Below are positions 3,950 through 63,333 of a stretch of DNA of 64,000 nucleotides, piece after piece (the stretch's first letter is position 1; every line of letters begins with the position of its first letter). Source of the stretch: Candidatus Pacearchaeota archaeon (GTDB lineage: Archaea > Nanobdellota > Nanobdellia > Pacearchaeales > GW2011-AR1). The notes below the pieces were generated by a model. It saw nothing but the letters and a program-made list of their open reading frames with translations. It was not told the DNA's origin and did no database searches. The stretch covers positions 434,159-498,158 of the forward strand of contig JAVZCO010000001.1 of assembly GCA_038874355.1 (NCBI GenBank), read 5' to 3'. The translations under genes were made by a program, and so were the position numbers.

Positions 3950-4636
3950 ATGAAGTTAAAAAAATTAATATATAGTGGATTATTTTTGTTTTTTTTGCAA
4001 TTAAATTTATACGCAGAACCACAACACATAGTAAGAGGACCAAAAGATAAGAAACAAATAGCATTAACTTTTGATGATGGAGATAATTTAGAAAGTGTGA
4101 TAAAAGTACTTGAAGAAAAAAATGTTAAAGCAACATTTTTCTTAACAGGAAATTATATTATGAAAAGAAAAGAAGAAGTAAAAAGAGCATATGAAAAAGG
4201 CCATGAAATAGAAAATCATACTTATACTCATCCTAATTGTACTAATATATCATTAGATTCTTTGATTAATGAAGTAGTAATAACAGATTCTGAAATTTAT
4301 AATATAACTGGTTATATTCCAAGATTTTTTAGATTTCCATACGGAAAGGCAAATAATGAAAAATTAGAAACAATAGAAAAATTAGGAAAAAAATCTATTT
4401 TTTGGACAATAGATACAAGAGATTGGGAATATAAAAAAGAGGAATACAAAAAAGCAAGAGAAAATATTATAAAAATGATTAATGAACAAACTAATAATGA
4501 AAAAGGGAGTGGTAGTATAATTTTAATGCATACAAAAACAATAGTGGGATCCTATAAGATTCTTCCAGAAATAATTGATCTTTTAAAATCAAAAGGATAC
4601 GAATTAGTTACAATAAATGAAATGTTTGAAAAATAA
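3950..4636 (+). CDS. secreted polysaccharide deacetylase (NodB/CE4 family)
   Basis: Signal-peptide-like N-terminus. Motifs IALTFDDGD, HTYTHP and IILMH match the CE4 catalytic motifs. Confidence 0.75.
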   Translation: MKLKKLIYSGLFLFFLQLNLYAEPQHIVRGPKDKKQIALTFDDGDNLESVIKVLEEKNVKATFFLTGNYIMKRKEEVKRAYEKGHEIENHTYTHPNCTNISLDSLINEVVITDSEIYNITGYIPRFFRFPYGKANNEKLETIEKLGKKSIFWTIDTRDWEYKKEEYKKARENIIKMINEQTNNEKGSGSIILMHTKTIVGSYKILPEIIDLLKSKGYELVTINEMFEK

Positions 4637-6806: not shown

Positions 6807-7487
6807 TTAATTTTCTTTATTTAAACTTTTAATTGTTAATATTGTTTTATTAACTTGTTCTTGATTTAGGAAATAAGGTTTAGAAATTTTACATCTGTCA
6901 TTCATTAGATTAAATTTATTATCTTCTCTTTTATCTGTTAAACCTAAAACATGTCCTATTTCATGAGCCAAGTTCCATGCAGTAAAATCTTTACATTTTT
7001 TATCTTTCTTAAAAATAACAAATTTATAACCACATAAATTTCCTCTCCCAAAATTAATACTTTTTCCTTTAATATATATAATACTCATATCAGGACTATT
7101 GTTTGTTATTTTATTTATAAGAGGAATATAAAATTCATTGCAAATTTTACTATCTTCTTCTGAATTTTTTCCAGAAATTTTAGTATAAAGATATTTTCTT
7201 TCTTCTGTTGTTATATTTAAATTTACTTTGTATATATTATTTATTAAGATAGAAATATTATAATTATTCCAAATTTTATTTACTTCACTAACATATTTTA
7301 CTAATTCTTCTTCATTGATTTCGTTATTAATAATATAAAAATTAAAACTAACATTTAATTTTTCAATATTTGTACCTTGCTTTTCTATTGAAAAAGAACA
7401 AGTAAAATTTCTCAATATAAAGATAATAAGAATTACAATAAAAATAAAAACCAAAGATCTGATTATTTTTTTATTATTTTTTAACAT
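6807..7487 (-). CDS. secreted zinc metalloprotease (metzincin-like, HExxHxxGxxD)
   Basis: N-terminal TM/signal sequence; AHEIGHVLGLTDKRED zinc-binding motif. Confidence 0.6.
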   Translation of the reverse strand: MLKNNKKIIRSLVFIFIVILIIFILRNFTCSFSIEKQGTNIEKLNVSFNFYIINNEINEEELVKYVSEVNKIWNNYNISILINNIYKVNLNITTEERKYLYTKISGKNSEEDSKICNEFYIPLINKITNNSPDMSIIYIKGKSINFGRGNLCGYKFVIFKKDKKCKDFTAWNLAHEIGHVLGLTDKREDNKFNLMNDRCKISKPYFLNQEQVNKTILTIKSLNKEN

Positions 7488-8038: not shown

Positions 8039-9721
8039 ATGAAAAAATATCAACTAACTTACAGTAAAATTAAAGAGAATGATATTTTAATAAACAACAT
8101 AATAACTCATTATAATTTTGGAAAAAAATATGGCTTAACACAAAAAGAAATATGTAAAGAATTTAATATTTCTCAATATACATTAAGAAAAATTTTTAAA
8201 GAATCTAATAGAAAAATTTACTCAAAAAGAGTTTATAAAGAGGATATTGAAGAGATAGTTAAACAATATAAACAAGGAATTCCTATATATAATGAAAAAA
8301 ATTATTTTGAAACTATTTCAGGTTATCATGGATTAAGCAAAAGTACTATAATAAAATATCTAAAACAACAAGGAGTTTATAATTCTAAAAAAGAATATAA
8401 ATCAAAAAATAAGAAAAATAAAGAAGAAATAATAAAAAAAGAAAAAAATTTAGAAGAAAAAATTTTATATGATAATCAAATAGAAAACAAGGAAATAACA
8501 AAAAATAAAGAGTTAAGAGAAAAAAATTTTTATAGTAATCCTTTTCCTGTTACCTATAATCAAAACAATCCTAAAAAAAACTATATAAATTTCTTTAATA
8601 GATTAGGAAAAATTGCAAAAAAAGCTTTAATTACAACAACAGCAGGTCTAATTTTAGCAGGTTCTTTATTTTTTGGCGGTTATAAAAAAGGTTATTATGA
8701 CGCAAAAATGATTTATAAAGAAAAAGAGAAAATTAATTACGTAGAAAAAAAAGAAGAAAATCCAGCAGAAATAAAAATTTTAGAAGAAATTCAGCCAGAG
8801 AAAAAAATAAAAAGCGAACAAAAAAAAGAAATAAAAACAAAAAAACAAAATATCTATTCTTCACAAAAAAGTAAAAAAGAAAATAAATCTTATGAAAAAA
8901 AAGAAGAAAAAGGATCAAAAATTCCAGAAGAAATAAAAAATATAGTAGAATTAAAGGAAAAAGAAAATAAATCTTATGAAAAAAAAGATGAAATACAAAA
9001 AGAAATTCCTTCAAAAGATCTTTCTCTAAATTTAGAGAAAATATTACAATCAGATTTTAAAGAAGTTAAAATAAAAAAACATTCAATTTATTATGAAGTT
9101 TTAGATGAAACAATTCTTTTTAATATTCCAGAAATAATTGAAGTGGAAAAAGAGACATTGAAAATAAAATATGATAAATTAAAAGAGATTGCTACTAAAG
9201 GAAAAGAATTATTTGGAGAAAGACCTATTATAAAGGTTTGGGAAAGAGAAGGAATAGAAGTTTACGGATTTCCAATAAACACTAATGAAGAAATAGAACA
9301 AAGAGGTATCTGGCAAATAAATACAGATTCTAATGGGAAAAGAATTCCATCAGAATACATAGTTTACAATGATATGAAAACAAAAAATGTTTCTCCATCT
9401 AAACCAGATAAAATAATAAATTTTATTCAATTAGAAGAAATAATAAATAATGCAGAAAAAAATAAAAATTTTATTATTCCTCAACATATAAATAAAGATA
9501 AAAATCATTTAAGTGGTTTTGTTATTAAAAAAGATAAAGATAAAAAAGTAATAGTTCAAAATCAAATATATAATTCTGAAAAATTAAATAAATCCTTATT
9601 GAAAAGTATATCAAAAATAGGCCTTTCTGTCGCTGTTGGGGAAATAATAGGACCAGGAGAGAAAGGTATTAATGGATCTTCACAAATACAAATACCACCA
9701 GGGCCTCACCCAGGGATATAA
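8039..9721 (+). CDS. Lys/Glu-rich membrane-anchored hypothetical protein with an internal repeat
   Basis: 560 aa with one TM segment (ALITTTAGLILAGSLFFGG). Internal duplicated segment KENKSYEKKEEK / KENKSYEKKDE. N-terminal HTH-like region (YGLTQKEICKEFNISQYTLRK). Confidence 0.4.
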   Translation: MKKYQLTYSKIKENDILINNIITHYNFGKKYGLTQKEICKEFNISQYTLRKIFKESNRKIYSKRVYKEDIEEIVKQYKQGIPIYNEKNYFETISGYHGLSKSTIIKYLKQQGVYNSKKEYKSKNKKNKEEIIKKEKNLEEKILYDNQIENKEITKNKELREKNFYSNPFPVTYNQNNPKKNYINFFNRLGKIAKKALITTTAGLILAGSLFFGGYKKGYYDAKMIYKEKEKINYVEKKEENPAEIKILEEIQPEKKIKSEQKKEIKTKKQNIYSSQKSKKENKSYEKKEEKGSKIPEEIKNIVELKEKENKSYEKKDEIQKEIPSKDLSLNLEKILQSDFKEVKIKKHSIYYEVLDETILFNIPEIIEVEKETLKIKYDKLKEIATKGKELFGERPIIKVWEREGIEVYGFPINTNEEIEQRGIWQINTDSNGKRIPSEYIVYNDMKTKNVSPSKPDKIINFIQLEEIINNAEKNKNFIIPQHINKDKNHLSGFVIKKDKDKKVIVQNQIYNSEKLNKSLLKSISKIGLSVAVGEIIGPGEKGINGSSQIQIPPGPHPGI

Positions 9722-9735
9722 AAATCTTATGAAAA

Positions 9736-11370
9736 ATGAAAAAAATATTTATTTTTTCTTTATTTAGTATCTTCACAATTAGTTTAGTTTTTGCTTCTTC
9801 TTATTACTATTATACTACAAATTGGTATTATCAAGGAAATCCAGTTAATAATGTTAGAGCAATGAATTTTAAATGTTTAGATAACGGTTGTTATAATTTA
9901 GGTGAAAAAACGTTTGATTTTACTTCACAGAGTAATAGTATAACTATTCCTTATTCTATTCCATCTCCACAATACGGCTATGCTAGTTATTGGTTCTCTT
10001 CTTGTTATATTTATCAAGAAATGGCTTGGAAACCCAATTCTATCGGGAGTTATTTACAAAATGTTAATTTCACAAAAAAAGAAAATTGTAATTCTTCTAT
10101 AGAAGAATTAATTTTTCCAGGTCTTATAAATAAGAGTCAAAATGTTAATATAACAGCAATAATAAAATCCGCTTTTTTTAATTTACCTGAAGCACCTTAT
10201 GCAGTTCCTTCTGATAAAGATCTTATAAAAGATTTTTTTTCTTCTGAAGTGAATATAACATTAGAAATAAAAAATTCTACAAAAAATATTGTTCATACTA
10301 GTTCAAAAGTAGATTATATTTATATGGATTCTTTAAAAGATATAGAATTTTATTGGATTCCGGATAAAGAAGGAATTTATAATATAACAATAAAAACAGA
10401 AGTTATTGATTGCAAATGTTCTTCTAATATAATAAATAAAAAATCGAAAATAATAATAGTTAATTTTACAGATCAATTTCCAATAAATGATACAAACCCT
10501 CCACAAATTACAATAATCTCACCAGCAAACATAACATATAACACAAACACAATTAACTTCAATATAACAGCAGATGAAAATTTAGATACTTGTATATATA
10601 CTTTAGATGAATGGCAAACAAATATAACCATGACAAAATTAAATGACACATACTTCTATAACATAACTCAATTAAACGACGGAAGCTACACAGCAAGGTT
10701 CTGGTGTAATGATACAGCTAGCAATGTAAATAATACAGAACAAGTTAGTTTTGTTGTTAATACTACAATAGAAGAAAATGACACAACAGAACCAATAATC
10801 TTTTTAATTTCTCCATCAAATAACTCTCAATTTTATGAAGGAAATATTAATTTCACTTATAAAGTAACAGATTTAAGCAATATATCTTATTGTAAATTTT
10901 ATTTAAATAACATAAGTGAATATACAGACAACTCTATTATAAAAGAAATTAATTTAACTATAACAAAAAATTTAACAAAAGGAAATTATTCTTGGTATAT
11001 AGAATGTGTAGATTCTTACAATAATGTTGGAGTAAGTGAAACAAGAACAATACATATTTTAGAAAAACAAAACAATACAGAAGAAACAGAAAAAAACAAG
11101 ACGAAAAAAAATGAAAGAGAAAAAAAAGAAATTTTAAAATTTGTTAAAGAAGAAGAAATATGCGGAAATTATATATGTGAATATTGGTTAGGAGAAAATG
11201 AATATAATTGTGAGAAAGACTGTTTAGAAAATATAAAACTTAATTATGAAAAAGAAAAAGTAACATTAAGCAAAAAAGAAACCAAAAATAATCTTATTTC
11301 ATTAATAATTTTTTTAATTTTATCAATTTTTATTCTTTTAATTATTATTTATCTTATTTTAAAAAAATAA
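9736..11370 (+). CDS. secreted cell-surface protein rich in N-glycosylation sequons, with C-terminal TM anchor
   Basis: Signal peptide; dozens of N-x-S/T sequons; Cys-rich pre-anchor region; C-terminal hydrophobic helix followed by KK. Confidence 0.5.
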   Translation: MKKIFIFSLFSIFTISLVFASSYYYYTTNWYYQGNPVNNVRAMNFKCLDNGCYNLGEKTFDFTSQSNSITIPYSIPSPQYGYASYWFSSCYIYQEMAWKPNSIGSYLQNVNFTKKENCNSSIEELIFPGLINKSQNVNITAIIKSAFFNLPEAPYAVPSDKDLIKDFFSSEVNITLEIKNSTKNIVHTSSKVDYIYMDSLKDIEFYWIPDKEGIYNITIKTEVIDCKCSSNIINKKSKIIIVNFTDQFPINDTNPPQITIISPANITYNTNTINFNITADENLDTCIYTLDEWQTNITMTKLNDTYFYNITQLNDGSYTARFWCNDTASNVNNTEQVSFVVNTTIEENDTTEPIIFLISPSNNSQFYEGNINFTYKVTDLSNISYCKFYLNNISEYTDNSIIKEINLTITKNLTKGNYSWYIECVDSYNNVGVSETRTIHILEKQNNTEETEKNKTKKNEREKKEILKFVKEEEICGNYICEYWLGENEYNCEKDCLENIKLNYEKEKVTLSKKETKNNLISLIIFLILSIFILLIIIYLILKK

Positions 11371-15355: not shown

Positions 15356-16342
15356 ATGGAAGTTGATATAATTAATATTTTTAATTCAAATAAAAAAATT
15401 TCTGTGAAAATAGTTAATTTATTGGACAAATCAAAACTCTTAAATGATAAAGAGAAATTTTTTGATAGTTTATTAGATGATATAAAAAATGATGGAGAAA
15501 AAAATCACGTAGGAGGATTTTTAAATGAAAACTTATTAAAAAACCAGTTAGAAAGAGAAATTTTTGACAAAAGAATAATTAAAGTTTCAATAAATACGTA
15601 TAAAAAACTAAAAATTAAAGATATAAAACATTTAATAAAAGAAGTTATTAGTCATGTTAAAGCTTTTTTAAATTCTAAAAAAATTTTAGTTTATGTTTTT
15701 CCTACATTTTCGAACTTTATAATCAAAAAAATGAATGGTTGTAGTGGCTTTCTTGCTTACAAAAACATTATTCATATTTATTTATACCCGACAAAAAACT
15801 GGAAAACAAACTTTAAATGCACTCTTTTACACGAATTTGCTCATTGTATACAACCTTACTATTCTTATAAAATGAACCTTTTCGATCATCTAATTGCTGA
15901 AGGTTTAGCAGAACATTTTCAAATGGCCTTTACTAAAAAAAGAAATGCTATTTATTATACTTCTAAAGATAACAAAAAAATGGAGGCTTCTGTTTTGACT
16001 TTTGGTATTGGTTTACAAAGAATCCTATTTTCTATTATAGATTCAAATAGGAATAATAAAAGTATCAATTTTCCGGAAGAAATCAGGCCTTTTGAATATG
16101 CTATTGTATTGCACAAAGGGGAACAGGAATTAGCAGAGAGATGCTATTCTTTTTTAAAAGCAAAAAACAAAGATGTTTACATTGATGATAGAGACCTAAA
16201 TTTTAAAGATAAAATGGATTATGCTGATTTTCTTAATGTTCCTTATAAAATAATTATAGGAAAAAACTCATTAAATTCGAAATTAGAAATTAAAACTTCA
16301 AAGGATGTTACTATATATAAGACACTTGAGGAACTAATATGA
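15356..16342 (+). CDS. HExxH zinc-hydrolase domain fused to a class-II aminoacyl-tRNA synthetase anticodon-binding domain (HGTP_anticodon-like)
   Basis: LLHEFAHCIQ HExxH motif at about aa 160. C-terminal 90 aa PFEYAIVLHKGEQELAERCYSFLKAKNKDVYIDDRDLNFKDKMDYADFLNVPYKIIIGKNSLNSKLEIKTSKDVTIYKTLEEL matches the ProRS/ThrRS/GlyRS/HisRS anticodon-binding fold pattern. Overlaps the next gene by ATGA. Confidence 0.6.
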   Translation: MEVDIINIFNSNKKISVKIVNLLDKSKLLNDKEKFFDSLLDDIKNDGEKNHVGGFLNENLLKNQLEREIFDKRIIKVSINTYKKLKIKDIKHLIKEVISHVKAFLNSKKILVYVFPTFSNFIIKKMNGCSGFLAYKNIIHIYLYPTKNWKTNFKCTLLHEFAHCIQPYYSYKMNLFDHLIAEGLAEHFQMAFTKKRNAIYYTSKDNKKMEASVLTFGIGLQRILFSIIDSNRNNKSINFPEEIRPFEYAIVLHKGEQELAERCYSFLKAKNKDVYIDDRDLNFKDKMDYADFLNVPYKIIIGKNSLNSKLEIKTSKDVTIYKTLEELI

Positions 16343-17366
16343 TAAAGCCTAAAAAATTAGAAAAAGGAGATACCATTGCTTTTATTGCCCCAGCAGGTGG
16401 TTTAGCGGCATTAGTAAAGCATAGATTAACATTAGCTAAATCTTATTTTGAGAAAAATGGTTATAAAGTAAAAATCTATCCAACTGCATTGAAAAATATT
16501 GGCTTTAGTTCTGATACACCAGAAAATAGGGCAAAAGATGTTAATGATTCCTTTTCTAATCCAGATGTAAAAATGATACTATGCACTATAGGAGGAAATT
16601 CTTCTCATCAAATTCTAGATATTTAGATTTTGATTTAATAAGAAAAAATCCTAAAATATTTTGTGGTTATTCAGATATAACAACTTTGCATTTTGCATTA
16701 TATACAAAATGTAATTTTATAACTTTCTATGGTCCAACGGCAATTGCTGAATTTGGAGAAAAAATTAATTTCGAAAAGTATACTGAAGAGTATTTTTTTA
16801 AAGCAGTTGCTTCTAATTTACCTATCGGCAAGGTTTCACCATCAGAAAAATGGACTGATTGCAGAAAAGCAAATTGGCTAAAAAAAGAGGATTTACGATT
16901 AAAAAGAGAATATAAGAAAAATAAAGGTTATGAGTGGTTAAGAAAAGGAAAAGCTGAAGGAAAAATTATTGGCGGTTGTATTACTTCAATGATGCATACA
17001 AAGGGAACTGAATATTGGCCTGACTTTTCAGAAAAAATTCTTCTTTTAGAAACACCTGAAGGAGAATCTTTTTTTAAAGGAGAGCCCTTATCAAACATAG
17101 ATGGTTTTTTAGCAGATTTAAGGCTACTAGGTATACTTAAAAAAATAAAAGGTCTTATTTTTGGTAGAGGATTTGGGTATTCTGATGACGAGATAGAAAA
17201 ATTAAAAGAAATAATACTCTTTAACACACGAGGGTTTGACTTTCCAATTTTATACGGATTAGATATAGGTCATACTGATCCAAAAATAACTATTCCTTTA
17301 GGAGTAAGCGTTACTTTAGATTCTGAAAAAAACATTTTTTCAATAGATGAATCTGGAGTAAATTGA
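16339..17366 (+). pseudogene. S66 LD-carboxypeptidase (LdcA/MccF family) interrupted by a -1 frameshift near 16620
   Basis: ORFs 16339-16626 and 16581-17366 together give a complete S66 protein: IAFIAPAGG ... CTIGGNSSHQILD | YLDFDLIRKNPKIFCGYSDITTL. The frames join after a 1-nt slip at about 16620. No slippery heptamer is visible. Confidence 0.6.
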
Positions 17367-17628: not shown

Positions 17629-18306
17629 CTAGAAAAAATACTTATATATTTTTCCAATTTTTAACTCTTTTTTATTTCCACTTTTGGAAAAAAAATAAGC
17701 GGAATTGATTCCAATTATTTTATTGGAAGAATTTTTTAAATATATTCCCGTTCCTTCTGGAAGACCAATAATTTCCATATCGGTTTCTTCAATAATCTTT
17801 AATATCTCTTTATCATATTTTTCTTCATAGTGACAAAATACGCCTCTTTCGTTCAATAAATTCATCCCTTCTAAATCAACTAATTTAAATTTATTTTTAT
17901 CTAGGGGTCTGGCAGTAATAATGCTTTTTGTTAATATTATCGCTCCGGCACTTATCCCATAAACTACTTTACCTTCTTTGATAAATTTTCTCAATATTTC
18001 AATAAAATTAGAATCTTTCAATTCTTTTAATAACCTAAAAGTGTTTCCTCCACCGATAACGATTCCTCTAACATTGTTTAAATCCTTAATTGACTTATCA
18101 TTTAGAGTCGTCCACATTTCAAAATTACTATGGTTGAAAGGTGAAAATAAATTTTCAATCATCCAATTTAAAGAAGATTGAAATTCTTCTTTTTCCCTTG
18201 AATGAGGAATAAAAATTATTCTTCCATTTCCTACACTCTTAAAAAATAACGAGTTTATCTCTTTTATTTGTTCCCCTTTCCCTCCTCCAGATAGTATCAA
18301 TTCCAT
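17629..18306 (-). CDS. S51-family peptidase (dipeptidase E / cyanophycinase-like)
   Basis: 225 aa; GGGNTFRLL and nucleophile motif GISAGAIIL; Rossmann-like class-I glutamine amidotransferase-like fold pattern. Confidence 0.7.
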   Translation of the reverse strand: MELILSGGGKGEQIKEINSLFFKSVGNGRIIFIPHSREKEEFQSSLNWMIENLFSPFNHSNFEMWTTLNDKSIKDLNNVRGIVIGGGNTFRLLKELKDSNFIEILRKFIKEGKVVYGISAGAIILTKSIITARPLDKNKFKLVDLEGMNLLNERGVFCHYEEKYDKEILKIIEETDMEIIGLPEGTGIYLKNSSNKIIGINSAYFFSKSGNKKELKIGKIYKYFF

Positions 18307-31019: not shown

Positions 31020-33209
31020 ATGGTAGAAAAAGAAACTCAGTTAGAAAAAATAAAAAGATTAAGTAAAGAAAGGAAAAATATTAGAAATATTGCTACTTCT
31101 GCCCATATACATCATGGTAAAACTGCTTTAACTGATAATTTATTAGCTGCTAGCGGTTATATGGCTGCTAAAAATGCGGGTGATTTAGAAGCAGGAATGG
31201 CTACTTGGCAACATGCGGACGAACAAGAAAGACTTTTAACAGTAGATGCTGCAAATGTTTCTATGGTTCATGAATATCAAGGTCAAGAATATCTTATTAA
31301 TTTAATTGATACTCCAGGTCATGTAGATTTTTCTGGTAATGTTACAAGAGCTATGAGAGCTATAGATGGTACAATAGTATTAGTTTGTGCAGTTGAGGGT
31401 ATTATGCCACAGACAGAAACTGTAATAAGACAGGCTCTTAGAGAAAGAGTTAAGCCAATTTTGTTTATAAATAAAGTAGATAGAATGATAAAGGAATTAA
31501 AATTAACACCAGAACAAATGCAAGAAAGATTTATTAAAATAGTAATTAATTTTAATGAATTGATAAAAAAGATTGCAGAAGAGGAGTATAAAAATAAATG
31601 GCAAGTTAATATAGCAGAAGGAAGTGTCGCTTTTGGTTCTGCAAGAGATAATTGGGCTTTGTCAGTTCCTTTTATGAAAAAGAAGGGAATAACATTTAAA
31701 GAAATTTCAAAGATATATGAAATGAAAGAAGAAGAAAGAAAAGAATGGTGCTGGAAAAATGCTCCTTTATACGAAGTTTTATTAGATATGGTAGTTAAAC
31801 ATTTGCCAAATCCAGAAGAAGCACAAAAATATAGAATACCAAAAATATGGCATGGTGATATAGAAAGTGATTTTGGTAAAGGTCTTTTAAATTGTGATCC
31901 TAATGCAAAACCGGCCTTTGTTATTACAAGAGTAGTTATTGATCCAAAATCAGGAAAAGAAGTTGCAGCCGGAAGATTATTTTCAGGAAAATTACAAGTT
32001 GGACAAGAAGTTTATTTAAATTTAGCAAAACAAAAACAAAGAATACAACAACTTTTAATATACAATGGAATAAAACCAGAACAAATTGAAGAAGTAGAAT
32101 GTGGTAATGTTATTGCAATAGCAGGAATAACAGGAGAAGCCGGAGAAACAATAACTTTAGATAAAGAAACGCCATTTGAAGAATTGAAGCATATTTTTGA
32201 ACCAGTAATAACAAAAGCAATAGAAGTAAAAAAGCCTTCTGATTTACCAAAATTAATTGATGTTTTAAGAAAAGTAGCAAAAGAAGATCCTTCAATAAAA
32301 GTACAAATTAATGAAGAAACAGGAGAAAATTTAATTTCAGGGATGGGAGAACTCCATTTAGAAATTATTGAAAATAGAATAAAAACAGAAAAAGGAGTTG
32401 ATGTTAAAACATCTAATCCTATAGTAGTTTTTAGAGAAACTGTAATAAAAAAATCTCAAGCTTTTGAAGGAAGATCTCCTAACAAACATAATTCTTTTTT
32501 TATTACAGCAGAACCTTTAGAAGATAATGTTTATGAAGCTATAAAATCAGGAGAGTTGCCAGAAGTAAGAATAAAAAAGAGAGACGATAATATAGTAAAT
32601 AAATTAAGAGAACTTGGAGTTGATAATGAAGAAATAAGACAATATAGAGATATATATAAAGGAAATGTTTTTCTTGATAAAACGAAGGGAGAGGTTCATA
32701 TAGGAGAAGTGATAGAATTAGTTTTAGATGCATTCGAACAAGTTTGTGATGCCGGTCCATTATCAAGAGAACCTTGCACAAAAATGAAAATATCTCTTGT
32801 AGACATAAGATTACATGAAGATGCTATCCATAGAGGACCTGCGCAAGTTTATCCAGCAGTAAGAGATGCTATTTATTCTGCTATGAGAGATGGGGCTGCT
32901 TGTTTATTAGAACCAATTCAAATTTATTTGATTGAAGCTCCAACAGAATTTTTATCTTCTCTTACAGGTTTAATTAATTCTAAAAGAGGACAACTATTAG
33001 AAGTAAACCAAGATGAATCTGGTGTTTCAATAAAAGCAAAAATACCGGTAGCAGAAATGATTGGATGGAGCAATGATTTAAGATCTGCAACAGAAGGAAG
33101 AGGTGTTGCGTCATTATGTGATCAAAAATTTGAAAAAGTTCCTACTGCATTACAATTAGAATACATAAAACAAATAAGAAATAGAAAAGGATTAAGTGAA
33201 AATCAATAA
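31020..33209 (+). CDS. fusA: translation elongation factor 2 (aEF-2)
   Basis: IRNIATSAHIHHGKTALTDNLL G1 motif, DTPGHVDF, NKVDR, and the diphthamide-region context ...HEDAIHRGPAQ. Confidence 0.9.
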   Translation: MVEKETQLEKIKRLSKERKNIRNIATSAHIHHGKTALTDNLLAASGYMAAKNAGDLEAGMATWQHADEQERLLTVDAANVSMVHEYQGQEYLINLIDTPGHVDFSGNVTRAMRAIDGTIVLVCAVEGIMPQTETVIRQALRERVKPILFINKVDRMIKELKLTPEQMQERFIKIVINFNELIKKIAEEEYKNKWQVNIAEGSVAFGSARDNWALSVPFMKKKGITFKEISKIYEMKEEERKEWCWKNAPLYEVLLDMVVKHLPNPEEAQKYRIPKIWHGDIESDFGKGLLNCDPNAKPAFVITRVVIDPKSGKEVAAGRLFSGKLQVGQEVYLNLAKQKQRIQQLLIYNGIKPEQIEEVECGNVIAIAGITGEAGETITLDKETPFEELKHIFEPVITKAIEVKKPSDLPKLIDVLRKVAKEDPSIKVQINEETGENLISGMGELHLEIIENRIKTEKGVDVKTSNPIVVFRETVIKKSQAFEGRSPNKHNSFFITAEPLEDNVYEAIKSGELPEVRIKKRDDNIVNKLRELGVDNEEIRQYRDIYKGNVFLDKTKGEVHIGEVIELVLDAFEQVCDAGPLSREPCTKMKISLVDIRLHEDAIHRGPAQVYPAVRDAIYSAMRDGAACLLEPIQIYLIEAPTEFLSSLTGLINSKRGQLLEVNQDESGVSIKAKIPVAEMIGWSNDLRSATEGRGVASLCDQKFEKVPTALQLEYIKQIRNRKGLSENQ

Positions 33210-38967: not shown

Positions 38968-40176
38968 ATGAAAAATTTAATTTTTGTTATAACAATGGCC
39001 TTTGTTTTAGCATTAAGTTTAACTACATTTGTTAAAGCAGATAATCTTGATGTAACAATAAATGATATTGTAATAAATGGATTGACTATTCAACCGAATG
39101 ATAATGTAGTATATGCAGGATTTGCTGGGAGTACATTACCGGTAACAGTTCATTTTACATCAAACGTAGATGTAAGTGATGCAAGAATAAAAGTTTGGAT
39201 TGGCGGAGAAGACGAAATAAAATCAAGAAAAATAAGAATTGTAAATGGAAGCACTTATTCAGAAACTTTATACATTAAAATTCCTTCTGATATAGAACCT
39301 GAAGAAGAATATAAATTGTATGTTTCAATTGAAACACAAAGCGGATATGTAGAAGAACAATTTAACTTGAAATTACAAAGAGAATCTTATGATATAAAAA
39401 TTCTAGATGTAGATATAGAAAAAACTGTAGAAGCTGGAAGTTTATTACCAATTAATATTGTTATTAAGAACACAGGTTATGAAGAATTAGAGGATCTGTT
39501 TGTTATTGTTACATCAGAAGAACTTGGTATAGAAAAAAAAGTTTATCTTTACGATTTACAATCAACAGATTGTTTAGAAGATTGTGAAGACTATGAACAG
39601 GATTCTATCCAAAAAACAATAAATATAAAAATCCCAGATAAAGCAAAACAAGGAATATACAAAATTACTATTGAAGTAAAAAACAAAGAAGTAACTAAAA
39701 AAATAACAAAAGAAATTTTTGTTTATGGTGGAAGAGAAACTTTAAGTTTTTTTGTTCCAATAAAAAGTAAAGAAATAACAATAAATGAAATTGCGAACTA
39801 TGATTTAATAATAGTTAATGCTGCAAAAAAAATTGCCATTCTTCAATTAGAAACAAAAAAAGATGAAAATTTGGAAGTGGATTCAGAGGAATCTGTTATT
39901 GTAATTCCACCAGAAACAAGTAAAACAATAAAATTTAATGTAAAAGCAAAAGAAGAAGGTAAATATAGTTTTGTTGTTAATATAAAAGAAAATGAAAATG
40001 TTATAAAGTCGGTAGAATTTAATGCCAATGCTATAAAAGGAAAAAGAAGTATTGATAATATAACAATGTTAACAATAATTTTAGCAATAATTTTTGTTAT
40101 ACTGCTTATAGTACTTATTGTCTTATTAACAAAAAAGCCATTGATAAAAGAAAATTTAGAAGAAAGCTACTACTAA
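38968..40176 (+). CDS. secreted beta-rich surface protein with C-terminal TM anchor
   Basis: Signal peptide, repeated Ig/CARDB-like beta-strand pattern, C-terminal helix LTIILAIIFVILLIVLIVLL followed by TKK. Confidence 0.45.
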   Translation: MKNLIFVITMAFVLALSLTTFVKADNLDVTINDIVINGLTIQPNDNVVYAGFAGSTLPVTVHFTSNVDVSDARIKVWIGGEDEIKSRKIRIVNGSTYSETLYIKIPSDIEPEEEYKLYVSIETQSGYVEEQFNLKLQRESYDIKILDVDIEKTVEAGSLLPINIVIKNTGYEELEDLFVIVTSEELGIEKKVYLYDLQSTDCLEDCEDYEQDSIQKTINIKIPDKAKQGIYKITIEVKNKEVTKKITKEIFVYGGRETLSFFVPIKSKEITINEIANYDLIIVNAAKKIAILQLETKKDENLEVDSEESVIVIPPETSKTIKFNVKAKEEGKYSFVVNIKENENVIKSVEFNANAIKGKRSIDNITMLTIILAIIFVILLIVLIVLLTKKPLIKENLEESYY

Positions 40177-51328: not shown

Positions 51329-54094
51329 TTATGTTTTATTTTGAATATTTTTTTGTTTTATTGCTCTTTTTGAAAAAATCTTAGATATGTCTAAAGGTAT
51401 TATGCTTTTCCCTTGATATTTATTTATTACATAAGAAATTTGTTCACTTGACCAGCCCGTTTTACTTAACTGTTGTTTTATTGTATTATATGTCATTCCT
51501 TGATGTATAGCATTATTAATATATAGTAATAGATTATAAATATCATTTCTATTTTTAAATAATTTGGATTCGTAATGAATTCTATACCACTGAGATATTA
51601 AGATATAAGAAATAAAAGCACAAATCAATATAAAAGACCATAATATCCATGCAATAGTCCATGGTTTACAATCACTTCTACAATTTTTCCAATTCTCCTC
51701 TTTTTCCTTTTCACAAATTTTGTTATAATTACACTTTTCTAATAGAAAATCTATTTCAATTTCTTCTAAAGTTGGAGATATATATAAATTAAGATCTTTA
51801 TATTTAATTTCACCAAAGTAAAAGAAGGTTATTTCTCTTTCTTTTATATCATCAAAAATTATAGAAAAAGAATTGTTTAATTGTTTTGTATTATTATAAG
51901 AAGAGTATAAATCAAAATTTACTCCTTTAATAGCATCTGGAAAAATTAAATAATTTTTTATTTCTCTTGAAATTTCTTCTTTTGGGGATATTTTTAATCG
52001 AAATATTCCTAAAATTTGTTCTATTGAATTATCATAATATGCATAAAGATATTCTCCTTGCATATACATAATAATATTATCCTGCTGCCAGCCGGCAATT
52101 GCTTTTTTATATTCTTCTTCTCTTTCTTCAGAATAATTTCCTAAATCTTCTAATTCTTCTAAATCATTTAAATTTATTCTTTCGTAATTTACATAATAAG
52201 GAAGATTTTCTTTTAGTGTTATATTTATCTTATAGGGAATTTTTAAACTTAATAATTTTACTGCAATTTCTTCATATTTTTTTTCGTCTCCTCCTGCAGC
52301 ATTATAATCTATTTGAATTTCATCTAATTGTCTTGTTATATTATCAATATTTAAAACTTTCTTTATATATGGTTGATACTGCGAAGGAAAAGAACTTATC
52401 TGTAAAGTTAAGTTTTGCAATCTTTTTTTGTAAATATCTATTGTTGAATTTATTTTTTCTTTTGGAATAGAAATATTTATATTAAAATCCTTTTCGCTCA
52501 TTAAACCTTCAGAATCTATAACAGAAACCTTTATTTTAAAATTTGAAGAAGAAACATTCATGAAGGTATATTCTATACTATTATTAGTTGTTTCTATACT
52601 TTTATTTGGATCAAAATTCCAGATATATTTAACTATGCTTTTATTGTTTAGTGCTTGTGCTTGAACATAAAATTTTGTTGGATATGCTAAAAATGCTTTT
52701 TTTGGATATAAGTCTTTTATTATAGGAAAAGATAAAATTTTAATTGTTTCATTAAAAATTTTTTTATTTCCTATGTAAATTTCTATTGTGTGGTTTCCAT
52801 ATTGAGATGGTAATGAAAAATTTGCTTCATCTAGATTTAAAATAGTGTAATTAAAAGATATTTTAGATTTTTCTATATTTGTTTCGTAAATTTTATTTGT
52901 TGAAGAATAACCGCCTAATTCATTATATTCAATTGAAATATTAGATATTTTTATATTTATAGGAACATTTGCTTTGAAATTTATTGGAATTACACAACCA
53001 TCCTTATTTTCAATACAAGAAGAATCATAATATTCTTGAATGTAATTCATTATATAATCTTTTAAGTAAGAGTCTTCTACTTTTATTTTACCTATATTAT
53101 CAAAAACATAAGATTCTGCAAAGATAGAATAATCATAAGAAAAATCTTCTGGAATTTGTTCAGGATTCCCATAAAAACCACATTTTTCTCCAGATGATTC
53201 TCTTTTAATTTTATAGTCGCCTAAAGAATTTGTTTTTTTTATACAGATAAAATAAAAATCTTCATTATAATTCATGTCTTCATTTTTTAAAGAAATGTTA
53301 CAAAAATATTCTCCCTCTTTTATATTTTTTGTAAAATCTAAAGTACATCTTCCTAGTTCTTCTCCATCTAAATTAAAAATGGACATTCTTATGTTATTTT
53401 CATACTTTGAATTGTTAATAATATATGCACCTAAGTTATAATATTTTGATGGTTTTAATTTTATTCTTTCACAATAATAATTATCTTGAGATAAAGAAAC
53501 TAAAGTCGAAGAAGATAGATTACTAAAACAACCATAATTTTTACTATCAGAACAGATTATAGAAGAAGAAAATTTGTCCGATCTCCATTCTATTTCTTTA
53601 TCATATAATAAATCTATTTCTAGAGGATTTTCACATGAATACTGGTTTGTTACTTCCATATCAAAACTAAATTTTGATATAGAGCTTATTTTATCCCCAA
53701 CTAATTTAAAAGCAAGTGTATAACTTTCCCCTTTTTGAAGAGTAATGCTTTTTTCTTCCAAATCTATATTAGAAGTTTTATAATAAGGGATACAATTATA
53801 AGAATTACAAAAAAAATCTTCACCATAATTTAAAGAATTTAATAATATTAAATCAAATAAATTAATAGAACCGTTAATTTTAGAATTTCCTTTGATTAAT
53901 AAATCATAATATTCGTCTTTAACAGATATATTTATCCATCCTTGTAAATTTTCTCCAGGTTTGTATTCTTTTTTTATGTCATAAGAGAGATTACCTAAAT
54001 GTATATAAGCATTTGCTAAAAAAAAGTTATAAAAAAAATTATAAAATAATATTATTAAAAATAAAAAAAATATAAATAATCTCTTTTTCCCCAT
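51329..54094 (-). CDS. large secreted Cys-rich, N-glycosylation-rich surface protein with C-terminal TM anchor
   Basis: 921 aa, signal peptide, many N-x-S/T sequons, C-terminal WTIAWILWSFILICAFISYILI helix. Confidence 0.45.
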   Translation of the reverse strand: MGKKRLFIFFLFLIILFYNFFYNFFLANAYIHLGNLSYDIKKEYKPGENLQGWINISVKDEYYDLLIKGNSKINGSINLFDLILLNSLNYGEDFFCNSYNCIPYYKTSNIDLEEKSITLQKGESYTLAFKLVGDKISSISKFSFDMEVTNQYSCENPLEIDLLYDKEIEWRSDKFSSSIICSDSKNYGCFSNLSSSTLVSLSQDNYYCERIKLKPSKYYNLGAYIINNSKYENNIRMSIFNLDGEELGRCTLDFTKNIKEGEYFCNISLKNEDMNYNEDFYFICIKKTNSLGDYKIKRESSGEKCGFYGNPEQIPEDFSYDYSIFAESYVFDNIGKIKVEDSYLKDYIMNYIQEYYDSSCIENKDGCVIPINFKANVPINIKISNISIEYNELGGYSSTNKIYETNIEKSKISFNYTILNLDEANFSLPSQYGNHTIEIYIGNKKIFNETIKILSFPIIKDLYPKKAFLAYPTKFYVQAQALNNKSIVKYIWNFDPNKSIETTNNSIEYTFMNVSSSNFKIKVSVIDSEGLMSEKDFNINISIPKEKINSTIDIYKKRLQNLTLQISSFPSQYQPYIKKVLNIDNITRQLDEIQIDYNAAGGDEKKYEEIAVKLLSLKIPYKINITLKENLPYYVNYERINLNDLEELEDLGNYSEEREEEYKKAIAGWQQDNIIMYMQGEYLYAYYDNSIEQILGIFRLKISPKEEISREIKNYLIFPDAIKGVNFDLYSSYNNTKQLNNSFSIIFDDIKEREITFFYFGEIKYKDLNLYISPTLEEIEIDFLLEKCNYNKICEKEKEENWKNCRSDCKPWTIAWILWSFILICAFISYILISQWYRIHYESKLFKNRNDIYNLLLYINNAIHQGMTYNTIKQQLSKTGWSSEQISYVINKYQGKSIIPLDISKIFSKRAIKQKNIQNKT

Positions 54095-55862: not shown

Positions 55863-57762
<1,900 letters not shown>

Positions 57763-57792
57763 ATTTAATTAAATAATAAAAAAGAAGGTAAA

Positions 57793-58230
57793 ATGTTTGA
57801 AGATATATTTGATGAAATAAAAAGATTAAAAAGAGAAATTGATAAAAACTTTAATCAATTTTTTAATAATAGATTAGATTTAGAATTAGAAGAAGAAATG
57901 TCTGGAATGAAAAAACCTCTTTCAGAAATGGAAGAGACAGAAAAAGATTTAATATTAAGATTTGAAATTCCTGGAGTTGATAAAAAAGATATACATTTAA
58001 ATATAACAAAAAATAAAGTTGAAATAAGAGCAGAAAAGAAAAAAGAAGAAAAAATAGAGAAGAAAGGATTTTTTAAATCAGAAAGAATTTATAATGGATT
58101 TTATAGAACAATGATACTACCTTGCGAGGTAATACCAGAAAAAGCAAAAGCAAAATATAAAGATGGAATTCTTGAAGTTATTGTTCCAAAAACAAAAGAT
58201 GATAAAAAAACAAAAATAGAAATAGAATAA
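57793..58230 (+). CDS. Hsp20/alpha-crystallin small heat-shock protein
   Basis: Alpha-crystallin-domain pattern (...LRFEIPGVDKKDIHLNI...F.R...LP...... A.YKDGILEVIVPK). Confidence 0.7.
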   Translation: MFEDIFDEIKRLKREIDKNFNQFFNNRLDLELEEEMSGMKKPLSEMEETEKDLILRFEIPGVDKKDIHLNITKNKVEIRAEKKKEEKIEKKGFFKSERIYNGFYRTMILPCEVIPEKAKAKYKDGILEVIVPKTKDDKKTKIEIE

Positions 58231-58569: not shown

Positions 58570-58854
58570 ATGAAGGATTTAAATGAAATAGAAAAAGAAA
58601 TTTATCTTGAAATAAAAAAGATCAAAAAAATTATAAAAAAAGGAAAGATTAAAAATGTTTTATTACAAATACCAGATTTTTTAAAACCTTATGCTTCTTC
58701 TATTGTAGATAGATTAGAAGAATCTTTAAAAGATAAGATTAATTTTTTTATTTGGTTTGGAAGTTGTTATGGTGCTTGTGATATACCATGTTTACCTAAA
58801 AATATAAAAATAGATTTATTGATTCAATTTGGTCATACTAAGTTCTCTAATTAA
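58570..58854 (+). CDS. hypothetical small protein
   Basis: 94 aa, no motif. Confidence 0.3.
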   Translation: MKDLNEIEKEIYLEIKKIKKIIKKGKIKNVLLQIPDFLKPYASSIVDRLEESLKDKINFFIWFGSCYGACDIPCLPKNIKIDLLIQFGHTKFSN

Positions 58855-58978: not shown

Positions 58979-59785
58979 TTGAAAATGAAAGAAAATGAAT
59001 TAGAAGAAATCGGAAGAGAAGGAAATTATATTATTTATAGGAATGAAAAAGAGATAGTTGTTTGTGATAAAAATAATTTTGTTATAACAAGATATAATAT
59101 AAGAAAAGAAGAAATAAAAGATGAAATAAAAAAAACAATAGCAATATTATCTATTGGTTTTTCTTTATTAAGCCCTTTTTTCTTTTTTGGAAATAAAAAA
59201 AATTATATAAATAATCTTGAAAATAAAGTAATTGCAGAAAAAAATTATGAAATTGAAGGTAAAAATAATAAAATAAATTTAGAGTATAAAATAAGTTATA
59301 AAAATAAAGAAGAAGAAGAATTTAAAAAATATCTTTCTGAAAAGTTTGATAAAAAAAGTAATCATAAATATATCCCTTCTTATATAAGTAATGCTTTTGT
59401 TAAATCAGTGATTTATGTAGAATCTGGATACAATCCTAACGTTATAAGTAATAAAAAAGCAATGGGATTACCACAAACATATTACTCAACATGGAAAGAG
59501 GTATTTCCTAATGATAGTTATAGTGATTTTTTAAAGGGAATTAAAGATAAAAATAAAAGTGAAGAGTTTGTTTTTAAATACTGTTCATTAATAGATAATA
59601 TATTAAATGAAAAAATGCCTTTTTATAAAAATTTGAATAATGATTTGAAACTAGAATATATCTGTGCAGCTTATAATTGGGGTATAGGAAACTTAATAAA
59701 AAATAACTTTGACCTTTCTAAAGCACCAAAAGAAACAAAAAATTATATAGTTAAAATTAAAAAGAAGTATTATAATTTAATATAA
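58979..59785 (+). CDS. membrane-anchored lytic transglycosylase-like protein (SLT/GEWL domain)
   Basis: VIYVESGYNPNVISNKKAMGLPQ matches the SLT catalytic motif (ES-G-N-A-S-GA-GLMQ) including the catalytic Glu. A TM helix lies near aa 55-70. Confidence 0.55.
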   Translation: MKMKENELEEIGREGNYIIYRNEKEIVVCDKNNFVITRYNIRKEEIKDEIKKTIAILSIGFSLLSPFFFFGNKKNYINNLENKVIAEKNYEIEGKNNKINLEYKISYKNKEEEEFKKYLSEKFDKKSNHKYIPSYISNAFVKSVIYVESGYNPNVISNKKAMGLPQTYYSTWKEVFPNDSYSDFLKGIKDKNKSEEFVFKYCSLIDNILNEKMPFYKNLNNDLKLEYICAAYNWGIGNLIKNNFDLSKAPKETKNYIVKIKKKYYNLI

Positions 59786-59879: not shown

Positions 59880-60227
59880 ATGGAAAAAAAACAAGCTATG
59901 GAGTTAGTTGAAGAATATGAAAAAAAACAAGGTAGAAATCCAGAGAGAGTAAATAAATTTAGAGAAGGATATGACTTGAAATCTGGAGATAGATTTATTG
60001 ATGTAAAAATAGGAACAGAAAGAGACAAGGATCTTTTATTGAGTTTAACAAAATTTAAAAAATTGGGAAAAAATATAATAAATTATTATGTCTACCTTGT
60101 GATAGAAGGAGAAAAACCAAAGTTAAAAATTCTTGAACCAGAGTTTCTTTTAAGAAACTTTAAATTGCTAACTTTAATGAATGTAAAAGGTAATTCCTTG
60201 AGAAGAGTTAAAGCAGAAGAATTATAA
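59880..60227 (+). CDS. small PD-(D/E)xK-like hypothetical protein
   Basis: GDRFIDVKIG fits D...(D/E)xK. Preceded by a ggaggt Shine-Dalgarno sequence. 115 aa. Confidence 0.3.
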   Translation: MEKKQAMELVEEYEKKQGRNPERVNKFREGYDLKSGDRFIDVKIGTERDKDLLLSLTKFKKLGKNIINYYVYLVIEGEKPKLKILEPEFLLRNFKLLTLMNVKGNSLRRVKAEEL

Positions 60228-62199: not shown

Positions 62200-63333
62200 T
62201 TATAATATTATTTTATTATCTTCAATTTTTCCTTCTTTTATTAGTTTATTATTAATATAAATTTTATAATATTTAACCTCTTTGTTTTTTATTTCTATCG
62301 TAAGTCCATTTATATTTTCTTCATATGAAGTTTCTATCATTATTTTTAATATGTCTTTATCTATAAAAGTTTCTGCATACAATTCTTCTCTCATAATCCA
62401 CCATTTTGCAACTTCTTTTAAAGTTGTTCTCCAAACATTCTTATCTTTCTGATAATCCAAAAATTTTTTTAATATTTTAAGATTTTTTTCATGTGGTAAT
62501 TTTTCTATATGACTTAAAAGAACAAAAACTCCTTCATTATCATAATAGATATCAAATCTTTTCTTTAATATATTATATCTATTTCTTTCAAATATAGGAA
62601 TTCTCGATTCCCAAAAAAAATCTCCATTTGTTATAATTTCTATAAGAGATAATTCACTAATATGAAAAGGATAAAATAAAGATTCCGCTATTCTTTTATT
62701 ATTCATTAATATCCAAGGAGAAACTCTAATACTTGAATCATAAAGAAATTTTTCTTCGTCTAAAATTTTAAATGTTTTTTTATCTATACCAAATGCCGGA
62801 GCCCTAAAACCTTTAATTTCCAATTCAGATTTTTCTAATATTTCTTTTCCTAAGAGAATCCTTCTCTTTTGTTCAGAGTAAGGAAGATTAGATAATTCTT
62901 TATAATTATTTTTTATAAGTATAGATTTTCTTCTTGAAAAATGAGTTAAACCATGCTGTGCTATTTCATTTCCTAACCCTTCTTGCTTTTTTAGATAAAC
63001 TCCTAAGTCGTTATCTTTTGTTATTTTATATATATTTTTATAATAAGGAATGACAAATAATGTTGTTTTAATATTGTAATCGTTAAGTAAATCCATAACT
63101 TTTTTTAATTCATCTAAATTTGTTAAAGCATCAATATCATCTATTGTAAATACTAAAACTCCTTTATAATCATTCGGCCATAATCCTATATTAATATTTT
63201 CATCAGAATTAAATAAAATTGCTGGTCCGAATAAAATATTTCTGTAATAAAAGAAAAATAAATAAAATAAAAAAGCGATAATAATAAGAATAATAATTTT
63301 TATAATTTTTCTTTGTTTAAGTAATTTTTCCAT
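62200..63333 (-). CDS. membrane-anchored polysaccharide deacetylase-like protein (NodB/CE4-like)
   Basis: N-terminal TM helix; GVLVFTIDDIDA and AQHGLTH motifs. Confidence 0.5.
   Translation of the reverse strand: MEKLLKQRKIIKIIILIIIAFLFYLFFFYYRNILFGPAILFNSDENINIGLWPNDYKGVLVFTIDDIDALTNLDELKKVMDLLNDYNIKTTLFVIPYYKNIYKITKDNDLGVYLKKQEGLGNEIAQHGLTHFSRRKSILIKNNYKELSNLPYSEQKRRILLGKEILEKSELEIKGFRAPAFGIDKKTFKILDEEKFLYDSSIRVSPWILMNNKRIAESLFYPFHISELSLIEIITNGDFFWESRIPIFERNRYNILKKRFDIYYDNEGVFVLLSHIEKLPHEKNLKILKKFLDYQKDKNVWRTTLKEVAKWWIMREELYAETFIDKDILKIMIETSYEENINGLTIEIKNKEVKYYKIYINNKLIKEGKIEDNKIIL

Follow-up and report, generated by a model that had tools for sequence, protein, structure and literature searches.

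The SLT gene and its product

We analyzed 64,000 nucleotides from a Candidatus Pacearchaeota archaeon (GenBank assembly GCA_038874355.1, contig JAVZCO010000001.1, positions 434,159 to 498,158 of the forward strand), hereafter the window, with attention to one gene near its end (58979-59785; Table 1) whose product we assign to the SLT-type lytic transglycosylases (LTs). The identical protein is already in NCBI as MEM3405904.1, a "lytic transglycosylase domain-containing protein" of a Pacearchaeota metagenome-assembled genome (MAG). Its annotated start is the ATG at 58985, 6 bases downstream of the TTG at which we begin the open reading frame (ORF), giving 266 residues. A preliminary description of the window, made from its letters and translated ORFs, had called the product an SLT-type LT, and we concur, based on a Pfam match above the cutoff, the presence of all four family motifs and a confident AlphaFold model. 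The Pfam SLT profile (PF01464) matches residues 136-243 with E=7.7e-9 and 35.6 bits, against a curated gathering cutoff of 21.3, and we do not regard this match as one that would arise by chance.

The motifs ES, GLxQ, AYNxG and ETxxY, which we take to be the definitions of family 1 of the LTs, are all present in the protein. The segment VIYVESGYNPNVISNKKAMGLPQT, translated from 59408-59479, was the one in which the preliminary description had recognized a catalytic glutamate and a GLMQ-like box; both are indeed there, and Glu148 (codon 59420-59422) aligns with the catalytic glutamate of MltE and Slt70. In an alignment of 49 family members, which are 20-48% identical to the window protein, E148, G163, Q166, N233, G235 and T253 are invariant and S149, G160, W172 and Y232 nearly so, while the proline of GLPQ, in place of methionine, is confined to the close subfamily described below. 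The retention of the catalytic glutamate and of the four motifs, invariant or nearly so across such diverged members, argues for selection on catalysis, and the gene is apparently an active copy.

Comparisons with characterized proteins gave the same picture. A phmmer search of PDB sequences aligned the ES motif with the ES of MltE/EmtA and MltC, and the profile of the 49 members aligned it so again when it matched MltC (1.6e-14) and Slt70 (2.9e-13); in these enzymes the motif reads IES or QES. The best 50 Foldseek matches listed for the model against the PDB are all LTs (MltE, Slt, MltF, MltD, Slt70 and Cj0843), each with a probability of 1.00. The root-mean-square deviations are 3.2-3.4 A across about 157 columns, and the best match, MltE, has a target TM-score of 0.55. 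In the viral structure library BFVD, the matches are SLT/GEWL tail and virion proteins of phages. A significant SLT match and an aligned catalytic glutamate, the two points on which the preliminary description had made its assignment depend, were therefore both found. Judged by its predicted fold and its four motifs, the product of 58979-59785 is a bona fide family-1 (GH23/SLT) LT.

Table 1. Features of the window and of related loci that are discussed in the text. Positions are those of the window unless a related locus (L number) is named.
Feature	Positions	Strand	Remarks
Membrane-anchored SLT/GH23 lytic transglycosylase gene	58979-59785	+	Uninterrupted ORF, 268 aa, TTG start at 58979
Four-strand beta domain, residues 9-40, predicted cytoplasmic	59003-59098	+	AlphaFold pLDDT (predicted local distance difference test) 93-96
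Single transmembrane segment, residues 52-72	59132-59194	+	Kyte-Doolittle window 1.85-2.14
K/N/E-rich low-complexity linker, residues 73-129, predicted largely disordered	59195-59365	+	pLDDT 48-73
SLT catalytic domain (lysozyme-like, GH23 family 1), residues 130-268	59366-59782	+	pLDDT 91-98
Motif I, catalytic Glu148-Ser149	59420-59425	+	ES aligned with MltE, MltC and Slt70; E148 invariant in 49 members
Motif II, G163-L-P-Q166	59465-59476	+	GLPQ variant of GLMQ; G163, Q166 invariant
Motif III, A231-Y-N-W-G235	59669-59683	+	AYNxG; N233, G235 invariant, Y232 nearly
Motif IV region, E252-T253-K-N-Y256	59732-59746	+	ETxxY; T253 invariant; aligned with ESRNY of MltC
Truncated Dph2-like ORF, 94 aa, directly upstream of SLT gene	58570-58854	+	Pfam Diphthamide_syn positions 2-58 of 302; TIGR00322 E=3.8e-20
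Small NOV_C (DUF3883-like, restriction-endonuclease-fold) protein	59880-60227	+	Directly downstream of SLT gene
Secreted CE4/NodB deacetylase	3950-4636	+	Polysacc_deac_1 E=5e-35, 120.6 bits; signal-like N-terminus
Membrane-anchored DUF2334/CE4-like protein	62200-63333	-	DUF2334 8e-27; Polysacc_deac_1 1.7e-7; N-terminal transmembrane segment
Membrane-anchored/secreted protein with zinc-protease-like motif HEIGHVLGLTD	6807-7487	-	NCBI: hypothetical protein
LdcA-like LD-carboxypeptidase (Peptidase S66)	16339-17366	+	One frameshift near 16610-16625; unlinked to SLT gene
DUF2268 putative Zn-protease fused to ProRS-like anticodon-binding domain	15356-16342	+	NCBIfam ProRS C-terminal region, E=1e-19
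Peptidase S51	17629-18306	-
Bacterial-type GroES-GroEL, then Hsp20	55863-58230	+
RNA polymerase subunit A, unsplit, 1174 aa	25468-28992	+	Rpb1 domains 1-5; NCBI label A'
921-aa exported ORF	51329-54094	-	No Pfam match; signal-like N-terminus and C-terminal transmembrane segment
544-aa ORF	9736-11370	+	Big_7/Big_13; signal-like N-terminus and C-terminal transmembrane segment
402-aa ORF	38968-40176	+	Signal-like N-terminus and C-terminal transmembrane segment
560-aa ORF	8039-9721	+	No such termini; one weak internal hydrophobic segment
Archaeal gene context of L001, L008			Dph2, zf-AN1, aIF5B, Kae1, DUF357
Archaeal gene context of L002			S27e, S6e, ScpA
Archaeal gene context of L005			Proteasome alpha, SBDS, S10
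Archaeal gene context of L007, L009, L010			Threonyl-tRNA synthetase (ThrRS) with archaeal editing domain, TFS, CDC48
Recurring ThrRS neighborhood	L007: 4809-8636 and 15015-16636; L009: 3992-7564; L010: 3782-9975
Split SLT gene in L005	L005: 9724-9936 and 10001-10498		70 aa (beta domain) and 165 aa (SLT)
Gene with N_methyl (prepilin-type) and SBP_bac_10 matches	L001: 3226-4056		Two genes downstream of SLT homolog

Membrane anchoring and domain architecture

The structure was modeled with AlphaFold from the 49-sequence alignment (overall pLDDT 84.4), as a model built from a two-sequence alignment was poor (pLDDT 57). The product had been described as membrane-anchored, and the one hydrophobic segment found by Kyte-Doolittle analysis, residues 52-72, is in keeping with this; a modeled helix at residues 41-63 overlaps the segment. 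The linker that follows is poorly conserved and of variable length in the close-family alignment.

The N-terminal beta domain has no Pfam match (residues 9-40) and was found solely in the closest SLT subfamily, in which EIGR and ITRYN columns are conserved in two family alignments. The shorter relatives begin instead with a classical MKK-hydrophobic signal or anchor that leads directly into the linker and the SLT domain. By homology to these relatives we infer that the SLT domain lies outside the cell and the N-terminal domain inside, that is, a type-II (N-in, C-out) membrane-tethered topology. It may be, although this is speculative, that the cytoplasmic beta domain couples the enzyme to an intracellular partner.

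A family of small anchored SLT proteins

When 1.84 billion cluster representatives were searched exhaustively with HMMER, 866 proteins matched with E<=1e-3, of which 145 reached E<=1e-10 and seven E<=1e-30, and in a word-based homolog search the number of matches rose from two with the single protein (itself and a 39%-identical relative) to 24 with the 49-sequence alignment. Six of the seven closest relatives, each of about 260 residues, are full-length and have the N-terminal domain. This domain is missing from the remaining one, P0007 (165 aa), and is encoded by a separate 70-aa ORF just upstream of its gene, in locus L005. The SLT gene of that locus is thus split, with the beta domain (YKEIMREGDLIIYGSGN...VTRYK) in the first ORF and the SLT domain in the second, and its transmembrane segment is disrupted. 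Most other members have about 170-280 residues (a few up to 346) and align to the linker and SLT part only.

Taxonomic placement was made for ten family members, and all ten are archaeal, three by name (P0001 and P0009 from Pacearchaeota, P0020 from Nanoarchaeota) and seven by gene context (Table 1); the contexts of two more distant members, in L011 and L012, were uninformative. As far as it has been sampled, the small anchored SLT subfamily appears to be specific to DPANN archaea (Pacearchaeota/Woesearchaeota, Nanoarchaeota in GTDB).

The family is well separated from the bacterial SLT proteins. With the 49-member profile, 100 representatives outside the profile scored 101-222 bits, compared with 50-91 bits for the best 80 bacterial SLT proteins of GTDB genomes. 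A neighbor-joining tree placed 146 of 148 representatives in one pure clade and 66 bacterial sequences in another; it is a rough tree, built from BLOSUM distances without support values, and its outgroup, chosen by motif pattern, is biased. The outgroup came from a broad pattern (GARGLMQ...), the listed matches of which are almost only bacterial SLT proteins, at 27-40% identity; one is titled Euryarchaeota archaeon (L031) and none is from DPANN. These matches are uninformative on the distribution in DPANN. A search of GTDB species genomes with the close-subfamily pattern [LY]PQ[TA][YC][YF][SE][TI]W gave no relative, and the source MAG itself is therefore apparently outside this collection.

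No donor could be named, as the nearest bacterial SLT proteins listed span Acidobacteriota, Desulfobacterota, Paenibacillus, Melainabacteria and others, and the search for a phage donor gave no close relative. Our reading is that the family stems from one old acquisition from bacterial SLT proteins, probably followed by vertical inheritance, based on the clear separation from the sampled bacterial proteins and on stable chromosomal positions. The order ThrRS-SLT-tRNA-synt_1b occurs in L009 and L010, and a looser form of it, with other genes intervening, in L007. This neighborhood of ThrRS, SLT and a class-Ib tRNA synthetase is that of the shorter members, and in two loci it also has a large MG2-like protein. 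L007 also has a gene for a DnaG primase of the bacterial type that carries a DnaB-binding domain.

The close subfamily has a different neighbor. A truncated Dph2 ORF stands directly before the SLT gene in the window, in L001 (1472-1753) and in L008 (7571-7837), with 58-60% identity between the products, and it is a conserved gene partner of this subfamily. These ORFs (88-94 aa) cover only the N-terminal 60-85 or so of the 300-320 positions of the Dph2 models, and no remainder of dph2 was found near them. The window also encodes an EF-2 (31020-33209) that retains the histidine, in HEDAIHRG, that is the target of diphthamide modification. On its other side, the SLT gene of the window is followed by the gene for a small NOV_C protein, which the related loci do not conserve. 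In L001, a gene with prepilin-type N_methyl and SBP_bac_10 matches lies near the SLT homolog and hints at a possible link to pili in that lineage only.

The archaeal host

The preliminary description placed the gene in an archaeon, and the window confirms this, as it carries Rpb2- and Rpb1-type RNA polymerase subunits, an archaeal NusA KH protein, S12, S7, EF-2, S10 and an EF-1alpha with an eEF1A C-domain. All other window proteins looked up share the 575,629-bp contig with MEM3405904.1. The GC content of the SLT gene is 20.1%, and the mean of the window ORFs is 24.2 +/- 3.7%.

RNA polymerase subunit A, which is split into A' and A'' in most archaea, is a single ORF here; the literature searched gave nothing useful on an unsplit rpoA in DPANN genomes. 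Three ORFs (921, 544 and 402 aa) with scant or no Pfam annotation are likely surface proteins and probably of a kind typical of DPANN. A fourth large ORF, of 560 residues, is not of this type (Table 1). The window also encodes bacterial-type GroES and GroEL followed by Hsp20, and such chaperonins are a peculiar feature for which Pacearchaeota and Woesearchaeota are already known (PMC8204110).

Other exported and wall-related enzymes in the window

The SLT protein had initially been presented as part of a secreted set of cell-wall-active enzymes, with two NodB/CE4 deacetylases and a secreted metzincin. The two deacetylases are sound, and both have Pfam matches (Table 1) and an N-terminal export signal or anchor. 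The protein at 3950-4636, with a Pfam match above threshold, has all five CE4 motifs (TFDDG, HTYTH, RFPYG, DTRDW and LMH), which include the Asp-His-His metal ligands. Among NCBIfam models it most resembles PdaB, PdaA and PgdA, with scores that all fall far short of the equivalog cutoffs. The assignment of 6807-7487 as a metzincin is weak: the motif HEIGHVLGLTD is present as described, followed by NLM, but the matches to reprolysin, M7, M10 and snapalysin are all below cutoff (E 3e-3 to 6e-2), and the gene is on the minus strand, which had gone unstated.

The idea of an enzyme set is only partly supported, and the set is no genetic unit. The genes in question lie 54 kb (3950-4636), 51 kb (6807-7487) and 2.4 kb (62200-63333, downstream) from the SLT gene, the latter two on the opposite strand. 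They are separated from it by housekeeping genes, including those for RNA polymerase, ribosomal proteins, translation factors, tRNA synthetase, SMC, proteasome, FttA, CCA-adding enzyme, origin-associated proteins, GroEL, MPG glycosylase and DNA repair. Even 62200-63333, the nearest, is not co-transcribed with the SLT gene, and the related loci have no conserved linkage of these genes with SLT. They are individually plausible exported enzymes and form neither an operon nor a demonstrated system; CE4 enzymes are generic, and a functional association of CE4 and SLT proteins could only be conjectured.

The companion most relevant to murein, missed by the preliminary description, is an LdcA-like gene (NCBIfam muramoyltetrapeptide carboxypeptidase, E=7.5e-24, with 84 bits against an equivalog cutoff of 378). 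NCBI annotates it as two proteins, which correspond to ORFs at 16339-16626 (95 aa) and 16581-17366 (261 aa). Positions 1-83 of the Pfam S66 N-domain are in the first, and positions 83-121 together with the C-domain are in the second, and the frames join as ...GGNSSHQIL / YLDFDLIRKNPKIFCGYSDIT. The frameshift is either an assembly error or the mark of a pseudogene. The gene is flanked on one side by a DUF2268 putative Zn-protease fused to a ProRS-like domain and on the other by a Peptidase S51 gene.

Substrate and possible role

To our knowledge, archaea make no murein. The role that we consider probable for the SLT protein, with some reserve, is that of an outward-facing tethered family-1 LT that acts on bacterial peptidoglycan, either at contact with a bacterium or on wall debris. 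In this scheme, the flexible linker of about 57 residues would span the distance from the archaeal membrane to the contacted sacculus or debris, and Glu148 would be the acid/base in the cleavage of the beta-1,4 bond between N-acetylmuramic acid (MurNAc) and N-acetylglucosamine (GlcNAc), leaving 1,6-anhydro-MurNAc ends. The purpose could be to open the wall locally in a bacterium that is partner or prey, to release muropeptides that supply amino sugars and amino acids, or both. The presence of the LdcA-like carboxypeptidase in the same window is consistent with this role.

The preliminary description had also allowed for a pseudomurein-bearing host as the target. Pseudomurein has beta-1,3-linked N-acetyl-talosaminuronic acid and no MurNAc, and hence no C6 hydroxyl for the formation of a 1,6-anhydro product, so that this target is chemically unlikely.

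Several observations weigh against an attack on bacterial walls. The membrane tether limits the reach of the enzyme to direct contact, and Pfam finds no peptidoglycan-binding module (LysM, SH3 or PG_binding) in the protein. The charges flanking the transmembrane segment are ambiguous as to topology. GH23 also includes chitinases, and the substrate therefore cannot be fixed from sequence. The stable, housekeeping-like position of the gene could equally mean a role on the cell's own envelope. As for the use of muropeptides, the S66 N- and C-domains are both present but in no single intact reading frame of this assembly, and the window showed neither a transporter nor any other gene for recycling.

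Among the alternatives, a released antibacterial weapon or competition factor is the least implausible, although we consider it unlikely. Independent of contact, it would kill neighboring bacteria after cleavage of the linker or export in vesicles; the linker, long and disordered, could offer a cleavage site, and archaeal peptidoglycan hydrolases and a transferred GH25 lysozyme that are reported to kill bacteria provide a precedent (PMC12352652, PMC4241558). However, the close subfamily has a stable transmembrane anchor and no cleavable signal peptide, and a wall-binding module is lacking. LTs on their own, moreover, generally kill intact Gram-negative cells poorly.

Somewhat more doubtful is a self-directed enzyme that cleaves an undescribed endogenous envelope glycan containing GlcNAc, chitin- or murein-like, for example to make way for pili or during division, with the CE4 enzymes acting on the same polymer. 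Several features would suit such a role: vertical inheritance and, at three loci, a place amid core genes (ThrRS and Tyr/TrpRS), the tether to the producer's own membrane, a cytoplasmic domain suggestive of intracellular coupling, two CE4-type enzymes with export signals in the same window, and the existence of chitin-active members of GH23. Yet the 64-kb window has no genes for murein or chitin synthesis, we know of no such polymer in DPANN, and the motifs are those of the murein-specific family-1 LTs.

We regard as improbable two more far-reaching versions, in which the small anchored family is a vertically inherited core component of the envelope of Pacearchaeota and Woesearchaeota acting on an undescribed endogenous amino-sugar polymer, or a regulated, contact-dependent wall-breaching device controlled from inside the cell through its cytoplasmic beta domain, possibly with the truncated Dph2. 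If either were true, archaea would turn out to have a new kind of cell-wall chemistry, or the episymbiosis of an archaeon on a bacterium would have its first molecular mechanism. It is very improbable that the SLT domain has been kept as a non-catalytic adhesin, a peptidoglycan- or glycan-binding module for attachment. Attachment has been proposed as one role of the large LT proteins of DPANN (Castelle et al., PMC8204110), but here the catalytic glutamate and the four motifs are retained, invariant or nearly so, throughout the 49 members.

Finally, although SLT domains are typical of bacteria and of phage tail and virion proteins, we dismiss bacterial or phage contamination, a mis-binned contig, recent transfer and a prophage endolysin remnant, because the gene is contiguous with archaeal core genes on its contig and has a host-like GC content, is flanked by no phage genes, has homologs in archaeal contexts on independent assemblies, and has as its sole phage match a weak one (51% query coverage, 38% identity).

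Significance and comparison with known systems

A tethered enzyme against bacterial peptidoglycan would accord with the episymbiotic or predatory lifestyle suggested in the preliminary description, a reasonable reading that has already been published for Pacearchaeota and Woesearchaeota (PMC8204110, PMC9723730, PMC11537232). Both the idea of wall attack or scavenging and the occurrence of such enzymes in this lineage are in the literature. Castelle et al. (2021; PMC8204110) proposed that bacterial walls are bound and degraded and that bacteria serve as episymbiotic hosts, citing the earlier sightings of Rinke 2013 and Castelle 2015. Vigneron et al. (2022; PMC9723730) reported GH23 in Woesearchaeota and proposed a "vampiristic" lifestyle. 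Many Pacearchaeota genomes are reported to encode a GH23 murein transglycosylase and the group to be rich in muramoyltetrapeptide carboxypeptidase, and the peptidoglycan of dead bacteria has been proposed as a source of amino acids (PMC11537232). The same class of genes has been noted in DPANN of oxygen-deficient zones (PMC10936187). Strock et al. (2025; PMC12352652) found that about 5% of archaeal genomes encode peptidoglycan hydrolases, with Nanoarchaeota prominent among them, and showed that two haloarchaeal ones kill a bacterium, as is also reported for the transferred GH25 lysozyme of Aciduliprofundum (Metcalf et al. 2014; PMC4241558).

The available portions of these papers (PMC8204110, PMC9723730, PMC11537232, PMC10936187, PMC12352652 and PMC4241558) do not single out the small anchored family. 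What we add is its delineation as a distinct and, by our reading, old family specific to DPANN, a subfamily within it that has the beta domain and the truncated Dph2 neighbor, and, as a third point, the finding that the supposed toolkit of the window is no operon. A conserved and, judged from its residues, apparently active murein-cleaving enzyme is one of few clues at the sequence level to the partners of Pacearchaeota and Woesearchaeota. It points to bacteria, which would be hosts or prey or whose dead wall material would serve as food. With domains of about 140 residues, the compact members should be easy to express and are therefore better targets for biochemistry than the 3,000-aa proteins on which discussion has centered until now.

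The closest known systems are the bacterial family-1 LTs (MltE/EmtA, MltC and Slt70 of E. coli; Slt, MltF and MltD of P. aeruginosa), with which the window protein shares the fold, the four motifs and the aligned glutamate. Like MltE, it has a small domain that is tethered to a membrane, by prediction on the outer face. The archaeal protein differs in that its host is without murein and that its anchor is an N-terminal transmembrane helix rather than a lipobox, and the close subfamily further adds the cytoplasmic beta domain and has GLPQ instead of GLMQ. Identity to the bacterial LTs is 15-22% in structural alignments, and the family-profile scores are clearly separated.

The large extracellular LT proteins of DPANN (fam00969, PMC8204110) come from the same host lineages and have the same type of catalytic domain and the same proposed target. 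They are multidomain proteins of up to about 3,000 residues, whereas the window protein has 268 residues, a single catalytic domain and a membrane anchor; the window encodes no SLT protein of about 1,000-3,000 residues, and tblastn searches of it with family members returned only the one SLT gene.

The peptidoglycan hydrolases of Halogranum salarium (PMC12352652) and the GH25 lysozyme of Aciduliprofundum boonei (PMC4241558) are likewise bacterial-type wall-degrading enzymes acquired by archaea. They are secreted enzymes, most of them modular, that belong to different catalytic families and have domains for wall binding, in contrast to the window SLT protein, which is tethered, has no binding module and has a predicted activity. 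Small single-domain SLT proteins are also found among the VirB1-type LTs, those associated with type III and IV secretion or with pili, and the LTs of phage virions such as P7 of PRD1, all of which make a local hole in peptidoglycan through which a structure passes; the PRD1 transglycosylase and phage tail lysins are among the structural matches of our model. Unlike the VirB1-type systems, the SLT gene has no secretion-system or pilus genes adjacent to it in the window.

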